Positions 851 through 7,508 are shown, numbered from the stretch's first letter. The stretch: 8,953 bases of DNA from a virus (IMGVR_UViG_2778261177_000008); one strand, 5' to 3'. The notes: generated from the letters alone by a model not told the origin. Made by a program: numbers and translations.

Positions 851-927
851 TTACCCCTGAGGTAATTAAAAACCACATAAGACACGAAATCAATAGATTT
901 TAGAATATTTTATTACCCAAAAGGTAA
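851..927 (-). promoter_or_regulatory. Promoter/operator module: two TTACC-N5-GGTAA palindromes flanking a -35-like TTGATT
   Basis: Perfect palindromes at 851-865 (TTACCcctgaGGTAA) and 913-927 (TTACCcaaaaGGTAA). On the minus strand the order is operator, 19 nt, TTGATT (plus 888-893), 22 nt, operator, then RBS and ATG of the 500..847 gene. An AT-rich -10-like TTTAAT lies 17 nt after the -35. Confidence 0.6.
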
Positions 928-2814: not shown

Positions 2815-2829
2815 TTACCTTTGAGGTAC
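2815..2829. promoter_or_regulatory. Isolated operator-like palindrome TTACCtttgaGGTAC (one arm imperfect)
   Basis: Member of the TTACC-N5-GGTAA family. On the minus strand it is followed after 17 nt by a -35-like TTGATC, upstream of the zinc-binding ORF. Confidence 0.45.
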
Positions 2830-3140: not shown

Positions 3141-3214
3141 ATAATAAATATTCACCCATAAGGTAACAAAAATCAAGGATAGTTACCTATGAGGTGCATT
3201 TACCTGATGGGTAA
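3141..3214. promoter_or_regulatory. Divergent promoter/operator region (OR-like) between the cro-like and repressor genes
   Basis: Three operator-like palindromes: 3152-3166 (TCACCcataaGGTAA), 3183-3197 (TTACCtatgaGGTGC) and 3200-3214 (TTACCtgatgGGTAA, perfect). Centres are spaced 31 and 17 bp apart. Leftward promoter candidates on the minus strand: -35 TTGATT (plus 3171-3176) or TTGTTA (plus 3164-3169), with -10 TATTAT (plus 3141-3146). The site at 3152-3166 overlaps the -35/spacer. Confidence 0.6.
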
Positions 3215-3874: not shown

Positions 3875-3898
3875 AAGCCGCCTCATGGCGGCTTTTTT
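3875..3898 (+). terminator. Rho-independent terminator after the repressor gene
   Basis: GC-rich 8-bp stem AAGCCGCC (3875-3882), loop TCAT, GGCGGCTT (3887-3894), running into TTTTTT (3893-3898). Lies 20 nt downstream of the repressor stop TAA (3852-3854). Confidence 0.75.
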
Positions 3899-3911
3899 AT
3901 TGCCAGATAGA

Positions 3912-3988
3912 TTACCTTACGGGTAATTTTTTTAACTCATATCTATTGACACCAAACCAAATAAGCATAATTATTACCTCAACGGTAA
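3912..3988 (+). promoter_or_regulatory. pL-like early-left promoter with two flanking operators
   Basis: Perfect palindromes at 3912-3926 (TTACCttacgGGTAA) and 3974-3988 (TTACCtcaacGGTAA), with consensus -35 TTGACA at 3946-3951. The -10 is AT-rich (AATTAT at 3969-3974 with a 17-nt spacer) and overlaps the second operator. A GGTAA half-site lies at 3996-4000. Spacing is operator, 19 nt, -35, 22 nt, operator. Confidence 0.65.
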
Positions 3989-4007
3989 CAAACCGAGGTA
4001 ACAAGTT

Positions 4008-4160
4008 ATGCAGTGGAAAATCATCAACGGTTGGTACTGCGTTACTGCATGCGGATTCATGAGCTGGAAGTTCCGCACCTTACAGGAAGGCATTAAGTGG
4101 GCTTTCGTCAGCAAAGAAGCTCGCGATGTGGCCAACGATAACGAGATATGGGAGGGCTGA
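4008..4160 (+). CDS. Small hypothetical protein (50 aa), first ORF of the early-left operon
   Basis: ATG at 4008 with GAGG 9 nt upstream; 50 codons, stop TGA at 4158-4160. Sequence MQWKIINGWYCVTACGFMSWKFRTLQEGIKWAFVSKEARDVANDNEIWEG is Trp-rich with a hydrophobic N-terminal segment. Too short for the ORF track. Not Arg-rich, so not N-like. Confidence 0.4.
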   Translation: MQWKIINGWYCVTACGFMSWKFRTLQEGIKWAFVSKEARDVANDNEIWEG

Positions 4161-4162
4161 TA

Positions 4163-4462
4163 ATGAACGTTAATCAGCAGAAAAATCTTCAAAAAATCAT
4201 GCTGGCATTCGACAAGGACTACCGTCTGTCAGAACAGCTATATGACCGACAAGTTGAACTGATTGAGAGTATCCGGCTTCATCAACTGGCATCAACTTTC
4301 GACGTTGTAACAGTTAAAGGCGTTCGCCAGGAAGTACTGGAGGCCGCTAAAGACAGCCCTGAGTTCGAAGAACTGATGGATTCCTACCGGCGCGAGGCAA
4401 TGGCAATTATCGCCCGCTGGGATCTGGCTGATCAGCTTGATGGGCAGAGGGACGCGGCATGA
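4163..4462 (+). CDS. Hypothetical phage protein (99 aa)
   Basis: ORF track starts at 4148, but ATG 4163 has a strong SD GGAGGG (4151-4156) and begins 2 nt after the upstream stop. The stop overlaps the exonuclease start (ATGA at 4459-4462). No family recognised. Confidence 0.55.
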   Translation: MNVNQQKNLQKIMLAFDKDYRLSEQLYDRQVELIESIRLHQLASTFDVVTVKGVRQEVLEAAKDSPEFEELMDSYRREAMAIIARWDLADQLDGQRDAA

Positions 4463-5280
4463 ATCCGGGAATTTATTTCGATATCAGCAACGAGGACTAC
4501 CACGCCGGTGACGGCGTGAGTAAGTCGCAGCTAGATATGGTGGCTAAGAACCCTGCCCTTCTGAAATGGGTGAAGGCTGCTCCGGAAGACGAAGAGAAGA
4601 AGTCTGCACTGGACATGGGTACTGCTCTGCACTGTCTGCTTCTGGAACCTGGAGAGTTTGACAAACGCTTCATCGTTTCACCGAAATTCGATCGTCGGAC
4701 AAAACAAGGTAAAGCTGACGAAGAGGCATTTATTCGTGATGTAGCGGATATGGGGATTTCGGTACTTGATGCAGAGCAGTGGCGAAAACTGGAGCTGATG
4801 CGTGATAGCGCAATGGCTCACCCGGCGGCACGCTGGATGTTGGAAGCACCTGGTTACTGCGAAGCATCAATGTACTGGAACGATGAAGAGACGGGTGAGT
4901 TGTGCCGAATTCGTCCAGACAAATGGCTGAACGAGCACAACGTGATCGTCGACGTGAAAAAGGTTGCAGATATGGACCGTTTTGCACGCCACATCGAGGA
5001 ATTCCGCTACCACGTGCAGGACGCAATGTACCGCGAAGGCGCAATGAGGGTTACTGGTCAGCCGCATGGTTTTTTCTTTCTTGCCGTGAGCGAAAGCATT
5101 GATTGTGGTCGGTATCCGGTACGCGTGTTCGAGCTGGATGCGCCAGATGTCGATGCTGGGCACGCTCTGTTCCGCCGGGATCTGAATACCTATCACGAAT
5201 GCCGCATCAACGATGAATGGGGCGGAGTGGAAATTATTAAACGCCCTGACTGGGCACGTAAACAGGATATGTACGTATGA
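4459..5280 (+). CDS. PD-(D/E)xK-family exonuclease (RecE / exodeoxyribonuclease VIII-like domain), recombination partner of the annealase
   Basis: 273-aa ORF. N-terminal GIYFDISNEDYHAGDGVSKSQLDMV and the motif IRPDKW...VIVDVKK are characteristic of the RecE-like PDDEXK exonuclease family found in prophages (from memory). Translationally coupled to the downstream annealase gene (ATGA at 5277-5280). SD GAGGGA about 8 nt upstream. Confidence 0.7.
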   Translation: MNPGIYFDISNEDYHAGDGVSKSQLDMVAKNPALLKWVKAAPEDEEKKSALDMGTALHCLLLEPGEFDKRFIVSPKFDRRTKQGKADEEAFIRDVADMGISVLDAEQWRKLELMRDSAMAHPAARWMLEAPGYCEASMYWNDEETGELCRIRPDKWLNEHNVIVDVKKVADMDRFARHIEEFRYHVQDAMYREGAMRVTGQPHGFFFLAVSESIDCGRYPVRVFELDAPDVDAGHALFRRDLNTYHECRINDEWGGVEIIKRPDWARKQDMYV

Positions 5281-6158
5281 GCAATGATATCGCAATCACA
5301 TCACAACCAGGCGCAACTGTAGGCACTGCTGCGGCAATCTTCAGCCCCGAGGGCATGAATCAACTGGTGCGTTTCGCGGAGTTGATGTCACAAAGCAAAG
5401 CGACTGTACCGAAACATCTTGAAGGCAAACCTGCCGATTGCCTGGCGGTGACCATGCAGGCGGCACAGTGGGGAATGAACCCTTTCGCCGTGGCGCAGAA
5501 AACGCATGTGGTAAACGGAACGTTAGGCTACGAAGCACAGTTGGTAAACGCGGTCGTATCCTCTTCCAGCCTGCTGGCGACACGCCTGAATTATCGCTGG
5601 AGCGGTGACTGGTCGAATGTTAACGGCAAAACAGATAAATCACCGAATCTGACGGTAACTGTGTCAGCAGTTCTTAAAGGAGAAGCAGAACCCCGTGAGC
5701 TTACCATCAGTATGGCGCAAGCCGGAGTGCGTAACTCTCCATTGTGGGAACAGGATCCGCGCCAGCAACTTGCCTATCTTTGCACGAAACGATGGGCTCG
5801 CCTGCACGCTCCTGATGTACTTCTCGGTGTTTACACCCCAGACGAATTACAGGAAACGGCACCGCGCGTTGAGCGAGACATTACTCCGCAAACGACCACT
5901 GCTGCGGGAATGAACAGTCTGATCAACGCTAAACCAGCGAAAAAGCCTGATGAGCAAACGCGTAAAGCGGATAGCCGTGATCCAGAAGAAATGCTGATGG
6001 CCTTTACCAGCGCAGCGATGAATTACAGCACTGTCTCCGAACTGGATAAGGCTTACAAATACATTGCACAAAAACTTTCAGATGATGACGAACTGCTGGC
6101 AAAAGCCACCGACGTTTACAGCGTTCGTCGGGAAGAATTAAACGAAACATCTATGTAA
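5277..6158 (+). CDS. Single-strand annealing recombinase, Bet/Red-beta-like
   Basis: 293-aa ORF. Shares with lambda Bet, as I recall it, the N-terminal pattern ...A.Q.G.NP... (CLAVTMQAAQWGMNPFAV) and the C-terminal ERDITP motif (VERDITPQ here, PERDITPV in Bet). Immediately follows, and is coupled to, the exonuclease gene. Confidence 0.75.
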   Translation: MSNDIAITSQPGATVGTAAAIFSPEGMNQLVRFAELMSQSKATVPKHLEGKPADCLAVTMQAAQWGMNPFAVAQKTHVVNGTLGYEAQLVNAVVSSSSLLATRLNYRWSGDWSNVNGKTDKSPNLTVTVSAVLKGEAEPRELTISMAQAGVRNSPLWEQDPRQQLAYLCTKRWARLHAPDVLLGVYTPDELQETAPRVERDITPQTTTAAGMNSLINAKPAKKPDEQTRKADSRDPEEMLMAFTSAAMNYSTVSELDKAYKYIAQKLSDDDELLAKATDVYSVRREELNETSM

Positions 6159-6207: not shown

Positions 6208-6456
6208 ATGAAAGGTGCATTAGGTAAGAAGGAACTCCTGGCGGTGGTGCCACTGTCATGGAGCACTATCGACCGTATGGAGCGCGCAGGGGAATTTCCT
6301 AAACGCTGGTATATCACCGATAAACGCTGCGCATGGAACCGTGATGAAGTTGAGCGTTGGCTTGATGAACGTCAGGCAGCAAGCCCGGCAGAGTTCCAGG
6401 GTAAAAAACCTCCTGTTCAGCAACGTGTATATCGTCCCGTGAGCAACGCGGCATGA
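6208..6456 (+). CDS. AlpA-family prophage regulatory protein / putative excisionase (MerR-like HTH)
   Basis: 82-aa ORF with SD AGAGAGG 5 nt upstream. The pattern LSWSTIDRMERAGEFPKRWYITDKRCAWNRDEVERWLDERQ fits the AlpA/Xis-like winged-helix family (FP+..........W...E...W...R). Lies between the recombination genes and the integrase side, as xis does in lambda. Confidence 0.7.
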   Translation: MKGALGKKELLAVVPLSWSTIDRMERAGEFPKRWYITDKRCAWNRDEVERWLDERQAASPAEFQGKKPPVQQRVYRPVSNAA

Positions 6457-6565: not shown

Positions 6566-6865
6566 GTGAGAAAGTTAAGCCGACTTGAAAAATATCACAT
6601 GAACAAGGTTTCAATGCGCAGTCCGTCAAAGATTGTCGCCGTTACTCCTGCGGCGATAGAGATCGAAAAACGCGCGATTGAAAGAGAGAAAAAAGGGCAG
6701 TTCCGCATTGCCGCTCACCTTTGGCTTCAGTGTATGGATGTTGCTTCTGGTGATGTTGAGCGTGCAAGGATCGCGGTTCGCAGGGACCAATGTATCACAA
6801 AAGGTAACGGCCTTCGCCGTGGCGACTATAGCGGCATAGGATGTTGTGGGGTGGTTTATGACTAA
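6566..6865 (+). CDS. Small regulatory protein, PerC-like (tentative)
   Basis: 99-aa ORF; GTG start at 6566 with GAGGG about 9 nt upstream (alternative ATG at 6599). The segment EKKGQFRIAAHLWLQCMDVA...ERARIAVRRDQCI resembles the PerC-family motif as I remember it (LE..G.WRRAA..W...M...RR..C); unverified. Stop TAA 6863-6865 overlaps the methyltransferase start. Confidence 0.4.
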   Translation: MRKLSRLEKYHMNKVSMRSPSKIVAVTPAAIEIEKRAIEREKKGQFRIAAHLWLQCMDVASGDVERARIAVRRDQCITKGNGLRRGDYSGIGCCGVVYD

Positions 6866-7508
6866 GAAATACACACTAATCTATGCAGATCCACCCTGGG
6901 TATACCGGGACAAAGCCGCAGATGGTAATCGCGGTGCCGGTTTTAAATATCCGGTTATGAGTGTGCTGGACATCTGCCGCCTTCCTGTGTGGGATTTGGC
7001 CGATGAAAACTGTCTGTTGGCCATGTGGTGGGTGCCAACACAACCACTCGAAGCACTTAAAGTTGTTGAAGCATGGGGATTCCGTCTGATGACCATGAAG
7101 GGCTTCACGTGGATAAAATGTGGTAGTCGACAACCAGATAAACTGGTTATGGGTATGGGTCACATGACTCGCGCCAATAGTGAAGATTGCCTGTTTGCGG
7201 TAAAGGGAAAACTACCTACGCGCATTAATGCAGGGATCGTTCAGTCATTTACCGCACCGCGGCTTGAGCATTCAAGAAAACCAGATATCGTTCGTGAAAA
7301 ACTTGTGCAATTGTTAGGCGATGTTTCTCGCATTGAACTGTTCGCCCGCCAGTCATCTCATGGTTTCGATGTTTGGGGTAATCAGTGCGAAGACCCGGCA
7401 GTGCAACTACATCCTGGATACGCGTTGGATATTGGCGGATTAACAAATGCATTCAGCAATGCTCCGCTGTCACCAACAGACAACCAGGGGCAGGAGCGTG
7501 CAGCATGA
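6858..7508 (+). CDS. MT-A70-family DNA N6-adenine methyltransferase (orphan, phage-type)
   Basis: The N-terminal YTLIYADPPW contains the canonical DPPW catalytic motif of N6-adenine methyltransferases, and the length and layout fit phage MT-A70 enzymes. Start is ATG 6858, or GTG 6846 as in the ORF track. No restriction endonuclease gene is adjacent. Stop TGA 7506-7508 overlaps the next ATG. Confidence 0.8.
   Translation: MTKKYTLIYADPPWVYRDKAADGNRGAGFKYPVMSVLDICRLPVWDLADENCLLAMWWVPTQPLEALKVVEAWGFRLMTMKGFTWIKCGSRQPDKLVMGMGHMTRANSEDCLFAVKGKLPTRINAGIVQSFTAPRLEHSRKPDIVREKLVQLLGDVSRIELFARQSSHGFDVWGNQCEDPAVQLHPGYALDIGGLTNAFSNAPLSPTDNQGQERAA

Follow-up and report, generated by a model that had tools for sequence, protein, structure and literature searches.

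An 8953-bp stretch of viral DNA (IMGVR_UViG_2778261177_000008, hereafter the window) holds, at 3912–3988, two copies of one palindrome with a promoter-like hexamer between them, just downstream of a repressor gene and upstream of a co-directional operon. Which protein would recognise the palindromes, which genes would they govern, and does the arrangement work in the manner of the lambda pL promoter, to which a first-pass annotation of the sequence had likened it? The locus was compared with annotated relatives, protein and structure families and published work on related phages. The reading that we favour, with a probability of roughly 85%, is that 3912–3988 is a repressor-controlled sigma-70 early promoter of an epsilon15/phiV10-type podophage, flanked by operators for the phage's own upstream-encoded repressor, Rep.

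Results

Identity and gene map of the window

The window is ~98% identical to Escherichia phage vB_EcoP_ZX5 (ZX5) and 96–97% identical to phiV10 and TL-2011b. Its sequence places it in an E. coli Uetakevirus, an epsilon15-like temperate podophage, of which it represents the immunity and early region. A gene map was assembled from annotated relatives and from Pfam and PHROG family searches (Table 1), and the same gene order was found in ZX5, phiV10, epsilon15, SPC32H, Tyrion, BUCT554 and BUCT711. The Cro-like gene, placed by its PHROG match, returned nothing in a Pfam search. The 50-aa and 104-aa products at the head of the rightward operon matched, among PHROG families, solely those of unknown function. 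The repressor gene is closed by a Rho-independent terminator that is annotated as such in phiV10; its stem arms are conserved in relatives, where most changes lie in the loop or preserve the pairing, and it insulates the promoter against read-through from the repressor gene. A 161-bp region containing the promoter was present in 503 of 5426 complete E. coli genomes, and on this count we call the prophage common.

Within the DnaT-like replication gene, we also observed a 28-nt direct repeat (2159–2186 and 2368–2395; 89% identical, 209 bp apart), each copy of which holds a 19-nt palindrome, GTAACGCTG...CAGCGTTAC. It is possibly a replication-origin element, by analogy with the lambda origin inside gene O.

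Table 1. Genes, promoter elements and operator-type sites. Coordinates refer to the window unless ZX5 is named; a dot marks a feature without strand.
Feature	Position	Strand	Basis or remark
DUF1064/resolvase-like gene	847-500	minus	
Mirror-image promoter	851..927	minus	Two perfect sites 62 bp apart; predicted to drive the DUF1064 gene (847-500)
Mirror promoter, O-up	927-913	minus	
Mirror promoter, -35 TTGATT	893-888	minus	
Mirror promoter, -10 TTTAAT	870-865	minus	
Mirror promoter, O-down	865-851	minus	
lambda-P-like gene	1741-965	minus	
DnaT-like gene	2561-1713	minus	
One-mismatch site TTACC TTTGA GGTAC	2815..2829	.	Between the terminator of the Cro-like gene and the replication genes
Terminator after Cro-like gene	2863-2844	minus	
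Cro-like gene, 76 aa	3115-2885	minus	PHROG 35 'transcriptional repressor', E 5.6e-13
Operator cluster	3152..3214	.	Divergent gap between Cro-like gene and repressor gene
Cluster member	3152-3166	.	1 mismatch
Cluster member	3183-3197	.	2 mismatches
Cluster member	3200-3214	.	Perfect
Repressor gene Rep, 194 aa	3270-3854	plus	'repressor' in the ZX5, phiV10 and epsilon15 annotations
Rho-independent terminator of repressor gene	3875-3894	plus	Eight-pair stem, 6 G-C pairs, then T run
Promoter under study	3912-3988	plus	
O-up, extended: ATTACC TTACG GGTAAT	3911..3927	.	Perfect site; half-sites invariant; epsilon15 synteny
A+T-rich stretch with T7 tract, O-up to -35	3927..3945	plus	
-35 TTGACA	3946..3951	plus	Top-scoring promoter in the window; CTATTGA context conserved
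-10 AATTAT, 17-bp spacer from -35	3969..3974	plus	Consensus scan; register uncertain by 1-2 bp
O-down	3974..3988	.	Abuts -10, spans predicted start (~3981); syntenic with annotated epsilon15 repressor site
Shine-Dalgarno GAGGTAA of first ORF	3995..4001	plus	Contains GGTAA 3997-4001
gp37-like gene, first of operon, 50 aa	4008-4160	plus	PHROG 898, E 1.9e-38
gp36-like gene, 104-aa product	4148-4462	plus	
RecE-like nuclease	4459-5280	plus	Pfam DUF3799
RecT	5277-6158	plus	
AlpA-type excisionase	6208-6456	plus	
PerC-like activator	6566-6865	plus	
Adenine methylase	6846-7508	plus	
Integrase	8953-7703	minus	
Operator-type sites of ZX5	978, 2043, 2423, 8026, 13048, 13110, 13822, 13870, 14207, 16109, 16171, 19625, 19643, 22756		ZX5 coordinates

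Two perfect operator-type sites flank a predicted sigma-70 promoter

Direct reading of the sequence confirmed what the first-pass annotation had described, namely two perfect TTACC-N5-GGTAA palindromes with a TTGACA hexamer between them. The upstream operator (O-up) reads TTACC TTACG GGTAA at 3912–3926 and the downstream one (O-down) TTACC TCAAC GGTAA. In a consensus promoter scan the combination TTGACA/17 bp/AATTAT scored 10/12, the top sigma-70 match of the whole window, the -10 hexamer alone being a weak match (4/6). The register of the -10 element within its A+T-rich run is uncertain by 1–2 bp. Two other hexamers were considered and rejected: CATAAT would leave a spacer of 14 bp, which is too short, and TAATTA, at 16 bp, agrees with the consensus at only two of six positions. 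AATTAT at 17 bp was retained since the geometry is identical in epsilon15 and a Klebsiella phage, where GATTAT ends on the first T of TTACC and the spacer sequences differ.

Transcription would start at about 3981, ~7 nt past the -10 element, which is the centre of the O-down palindrome and ~62 bp 3' of the centre of O-up. The downstream operator had been said to overlap both the -10 and the start region; the overlap holds for the predicted start, and for the -10 element it shrinks to a single base, its last T being the first T of the palindrome. Between O-up and the -35 element lies the A+T-rich tract, possibly an UP-element-like or bendable segment, and the T run 3' of GGTAA showed no variation in a 12-sequence alignment. 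At five of the six early promoters of the window, epsilon15 and the Klebsiella phage, O-up and the -35 element are 19 bp apart; the exception, with 20 bp, is the right promoter of the Klebsiella phage. A minus-strand terminator-like hit at 4004–3971 turned out to be O-down pairing with the ribosome-binding-site region and was discarded.

A third operator half-site, GGTAA, had been proposed at 3996–4000, just before the first ORF. The motif lies at 3997–4001 and is best read as part of the Shine-Dalgarno sequence of that ORF: GAGGT (3995–3999) stands 8 nt 5' of the ATG at 4008, and a GAGGT occurs 8–9 nt before the ATG in all relatives, epsilon15 included. The trailing AA varies (GAGGTTT in epsilon15, GAGGTAG in ZX5), so that the motif is a conserved ribosome-binding site followed by two non-conserved A's, and we rejected it as an operator remnant. 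The true third operator of epsilon15, SPC32H and the Klebsiella phage sits in a ~75-bp segment that is missing from the window. As a separate observation, epsilon15 has a ~60-bp leader segment between operators 2 and 3 (4233–4293 of the compared sequence) with an inverted repeat, CCAC...GTGG; the repeat is common to epsilon15 and the Klebsiella phage, and the whole segment is missing in the E. coli and Enterobacter lineages.

Half-sites and operator spacing are conserved

A footprint alignment of 12 E. coli and Enterobacter relatives, confined to non-coding columns, showed variation in none of the 20 half-site columns versus 41 of the 99 other columns (Fisher p = 1.4e-4). The two operator spacers differ in this respect. 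All five columns of the O-up spacer vary, giving seven spacer versions among the 12 sequences; only one of five varies in the O-down spacer, and TTGAC is likewise almost fixed. Half-site changes that compensate one another were not seen in the relatives, the half-site sequence itself being strictly conserved. Between phages whose sequences are otherwise 97–98% identical, variation is greatest in the O-up spacer (3917–3921) and the adjoining 3905–3911. A further peculiarity was noted in the Enterobacter phage Tyrion, in which an 11-bp insertion directly 5' of the upstream operator (~4135–4168 of the compared sequence) adds an extra ATTACC half-site.

Eight phages of E. coli, Salmonella, Enterobacter and Klebsiella were then scanned for operators at two early promoters each. 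Perfect sites were found at the matching syntenic places in all eight, and the operator-to-operator distance was 62 bp in 15 of the 16 promoter instances and 63 bp in the remaining one. When the right and left promoters of the window, epsilon15 and a Klebsiella phage were aligned, 31 columns proved invariant, and few of them fell outside the functional elements: 28 belong to the half-site pairs, CTATTGA and the AT before the O-down TTACC. The common layout is operator, 19 bp, -35, 17 bp, -10, operator.

Operator-type sites recur before other transcription units

The window contains five perfect TTACC-N5-GGTAA sites (851, 913, 3200, 3912 and 3974) and two with one mismatch (2815 and 3152). These seven sites, against 0.17 expected by chance, are all intergenic, and seven were reached in none of 200 shuffles.

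The pair at 851 and 913 belongs to a second promoter in the opposite orientation. The reverse complement of 851–927 aligned with 3912–3988 without gaps at 48 of 77 positions, with both operators, CTATTGA (-35) and the -10 element in exact register. The earlier claim of a mirror copy therefore stands at the level of architecture, and the comparison singles out neither copy as the template. The best-spaced -10 hexamer of the mirror promoter lacks the usual A at position 2, and the equivalent site in epsilon15 is annotated as repressor-binding.

The sites in the divergent gap between the Cro-like gene and the repressor gene are conserved in relatives, and a minus-strand promoter match (TTGTTA/17/TATTAT, 3169–3141) spans the one at 3152–3166. 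The start of the degenerate member at 3183–3197 (TTACC TATGA GGTGC) precedes that of the perfect one at 3200 by 17 bp. Two tandem sites with this very offset stand at the corresponding place in epsilon15, SPC32H and the Klebsiella phage, and one of the two before the repressor gene seems to have been weakened in the E. coli lineage. The imperfect site at 2815–2829 (GGTAC for GGTAA) shows the identical mismatch in ZX5, phiV10 and Tyrion and may be a deliberately weak site.

Across the whole ZX5 genome, 14 operator-type sites were found versus 0.57 expected (Table 1). All are intergenic, and they occupy at least nine intergenic regions; some precede the small terminase gene or a head-region gene, and others lie inside the ant operon or upstream of it. 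The epsilon15 record (AY150271.2) carries seven features labelled 'protein_bind: repressor (lysogeny)', three of them in the interval from the repressor gene to gp37 and one ahead of the resolvase-type gene; annotated site sequences include ATTACCAAAATGGTAAT, ATTACCCAAAAGGTAAT and ATTACCCTTTTGGTAAT. On the basis of the ZX5 sites and the epsilon15 annotation, the repressor appears to control most transcription units directly, without an antitermination cascade.

Rep is a homologue of an antirepressor-controlled tetrameric repressor

Rep matched the SPC32H repressor over its full length (residues 1–190; PDB 5D50_A, E 3.5e-42), the SPC32H Rep/Ant structures being those of PDB 5D50 and 5D4Z. It has an N-terminal helix-turn-helix (HTH) domain for DNA binding and a C-terminal HTH-like domain for tetramerisation and antirepressor binding. 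Pfam placed HTH_3 at residues 106–147; HTH families were the only ones matched in this search, a Peptidase_S24 domain being absent. Rep is 43% identical to epsilon15 gp38, and its N-terminal and C-terminal domains are 53% and 39% identical, respectively, to those of SPC32H Rep. The recognition-helix motif NLVNRW is invariant in six of six Rep proteins that are just 42–44% identical overall, and this invariant helix fits the invariant operator half-site.

A paper that cites the SPC32H work, PMC9638917, gives the biochemistry of that protein: Rep binds palindromic DNA as a tetramer and only weakly as a dimer, the paired DNA-binding domains come from different dimers, and Ant is a tetrameric antirepressor that disassembles the Rep tetramer. 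A later paper, PMC9986798, assigns the Rep C-terminal domain a p53-like tetramerisation fold and groups it with domains involved in DNA looping. Closer to the window, the ZX5 repressor (ORF21) is 99.5% identical to Rep, and its overexpression abolished free phage and lowered holin and endolysin transcripts by >99.9% (PMC9782041); a search of this paper for operators found none mapped and speculation only. A literature search for footprinting, gel-shift or start-site mapping of this promoter in any E. coli member likewise found none.

An Ant homologue is encoded by ZX5. The 84-aa protein QZE12053.1, labelled 'hypothetical protein', matched PDB 5D50_E (E 6.6e-47) and is 88% identical to SPC32H Ant (73/83 residues). 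It is distinct from the 'anti-repressor' of the ZX5 paper, which is the 231-aa ORF4 (PMC9782041). The ant gene (2089–2346 of ZX5, minus strand) lies behind a perfect LexA box, CTGTATATTTATACAG, at 2368–2383; counterparts of Ant and the LexA box would fall outside the present window. A perfect Rep operator, ATTACCTTTCAGGTAAT (ZX5 2422–2438), was also seen ~40 bp further upstream of the LexA box. Between the E. coli and Salmonella lineages, the 88% identity of Ant stands against 39% for its target, the Rep C-terminal domain, a mismatch that could stem from mosaic recombination or from an interface that is small and conserved.

A model for repression and its alternatives

The adjacent SPC32H-type Rep homologue, the annotated syntenic sites of epsilon15 and the conservation of half-sites, -35 element and spacings support the operator/promoter reading. 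From these we infer that the N-terminal HTH domains of Rep would bind, in pairs, to ATTACC-N5-GGTAAT on both sides of the promoter when the phage is in the lysogenic state. Because O-down abuts the -10 element and covers the predicted start, Rep bound there should exclude RNA polymerase. O-up lies ~62 bp away, or 5.9 helical turns, which would put both operators on one face of the DNA, and the four DNA-binding domains of a Rep tetramer, making two pairs, could allow one tetramer to clamp both sites. Once free of Rep, the promoter would drive the gp37-like, gp36-like, RecE-like, RecT, excisionase, PerC-like and methylase genes. By homology with SPC32H, for which this mechanism is reported to have been shown, derepression would proceed without RecA-stimulated cleavage, LexA-controlled Ant breaking up the Rep tetramer. 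The same promoter cassette recurs in mirror orientation at 851–927.

How the two operators would work together is a more tentative matter. Strict conservation of the 62-bp distance favours cooperation between them, and a single-tetramer clamp would explain why it is fixed at both early promoters and across four host genera. Since Reps that are 42–44% identical share exactly the same half-site, Uetakeviruses of the four genera may moreover be cross-immune. If they are cross-immune at the operators, immunity specificity would be set by spacer preference, tetramer geometry or Rep–Ant pairing, and the drift of the O-up spacer could be affinity tuning or diversification. Taken jointly, a 62-bp micro-loop clamped by a single tetramer, possible operator-level cross-immunity across four host genera and tuning through the O-up spacer make a proposal that we regard as rather doubtful.

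A 62-bp DNA loop is very tight and energetically costly, and the one-tetramer clamp is accordingly just one possible geometry. It is plausible, if short of probable, that the sites act independently and form no loop, O-down alone blocking RNA polymerase and O-up helping as an auxiliary site, whether by raising the local repressor concentration, by blocking an UP element or by aiding cooperative contacts between separate tetramers. The position of O-down would suffice for steric repression; the third site 76 bp downstream in epsilon15 and SPC32H suggests that the number of sites is flexible, and the freely drifting O-up spacer suggests a looser constraint. Looping is favoured, on the other hand, by the persistence of the 62-bp distance in all but one promoter instance though the intervening sequence is only ~50–60% conserved, and by the behaviour of SPC32H Rep, for which good DNA binding requires the tetramer and its two domain pairs (PMC9638917).

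The palindromes might instead be targets, additionally or mainly, of the Cro-like protein, which would then lower early transcription during lytic growth. The divergent position of its 76-aa gene relative to the repressor gene and its PHROG 35 match fit such a role, and lambdoid switches place both regulators on shared operators. We consider this unlikely, as the gene has no Pfam match, the epsilon15 annotators gave the sites to the repressor, and the invariant recognition-helix motif sits in Rep; the idea is, in any case, compatible with Rep binding.

A pL/OL system of the lambda type, with a CI-like repressor cleaved through RecA and an N-type antiterminator driven by the promoter, is very improbable, although the location 3' of the repressor operon and the recombination and excision cargo do resemble pL. 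A CI-type mechanism was rejected for want of an S24 domain in the Pfam search, and Rep is a homologue of a repressor that Ant inactivates; the two sites stand 62 bp apart in place of three tandem 17-bp operators, the two leading ORFs match families to which no function is assigned, and the individual transcription units seem to be served by operator-bearing regions of their own rather than by antitermination. Finally, that the palindromes are chance matches or RNA or DNA hairpins is scarcely credible: short palindromes can fold, but these stems of just 5–6 bp are weak (predicted DNA hairpins of -3.7 and -2.5 kcal/mol) and make neither a hairpin nor a terminator of note, O-up precedes the predicted start and would be outside the transcript, the half-site sequence is conserved beyond its pairing with no compensatory changes, and the shuffles never produced the observed count.

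Discussion

The favoured reading of 3912–3988, a Rep-controlled early promoter between two operators, would make the region the switch by which a very common E. coli prophage is kept silent. With operators and promoter known, the rational design of prophage induction, of cross-immunity with relatives in Salmonella and of engineered reporter phages becomes feasible; phiV10, of the same family, has been used as a reporter phage for E. coli O157. The motif, its placement and the repressor/antirepressor mechanism are already established in epsilon15 and SPC32H, and little is added to them here. What the E. coli lineage has here is, as far as comparison of sequences goes, an orthologue, so far unannotated, of an operator/promoter system that is known and has been characterised in part. 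Kropinski et al. reportedly described the epsilon15 genome in 2007 (Virology 369:234), and the Rep/Ant lysis-lysogeny switch of Salmonella phage SPC32H is said to have been the subject of Kim and Ryu in 2013 (J Virol 87:11775) and of Kim et al. in 2016 (PNAS 113:E2480).

The label 'pL-like' in the first-pass annotation is apt for position and cargo and fails for mechanism. As at lambda pL, the early promoter lies downstream of, and co-directional with, the repressor operon; its cargo consists of recombination and excision genes (here RecE-like, RecT and an AlpA-type excisionase), and palindromic operators for an immunity repressor, whose binding is predicted here, overlap the promoter. Lambda OL differs in having three tandem operators rather than two flanking sites 62 bp apart, and lambda CI differs from Rep, which is predicted to be tetrameric and inactivated by an antirepressor and is devoid of an S24 protease domain. 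A PHROG family search recognised no N-type antiterminator among the first genes of the operon, and additional repressor-controlled promoters seem to take the place of antitermination.

SPC32H is a close counterpart. It has a full-length Rep homologue and the identical operator motif and layout in its genome, and its Ant has a homologue of 88% identity in ZX5, encoded downstream of a perfect LexA box. The difference lies in the repressors themselves, whose N-terminal and C-terminal domains are just 53% and 39% identical.

Several features are shared with epsilon15. The half-sites ATTACC-N5-GGTAAT are identical despite repressors that are just 43% identical; the sites occupy the interval separating the repressor and gp37 genes, with 62 bp from the first to the second; the -35 context in epsilon15 is CTATTGAC, and the last base of the -10 element is the T that opens the downstream site. 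A mirror copy likewise stands ahead of the resolvase-type gene. Apart from the repressors, the window departs from epsilon15 in three respects: the third full operator of epsilon15, which stands 76 bp downstream by the ribosome-binding site, is missing here together with the ~75-bp segment that carries it; the operator spacers are A/T-rich in epsilon15 and mixed in the window; and the sites between the repressor and Cro-like genes are partly degenerate in the window. Further epsilon15 sites precede the terminase, portal-region and tailspike/ant units.
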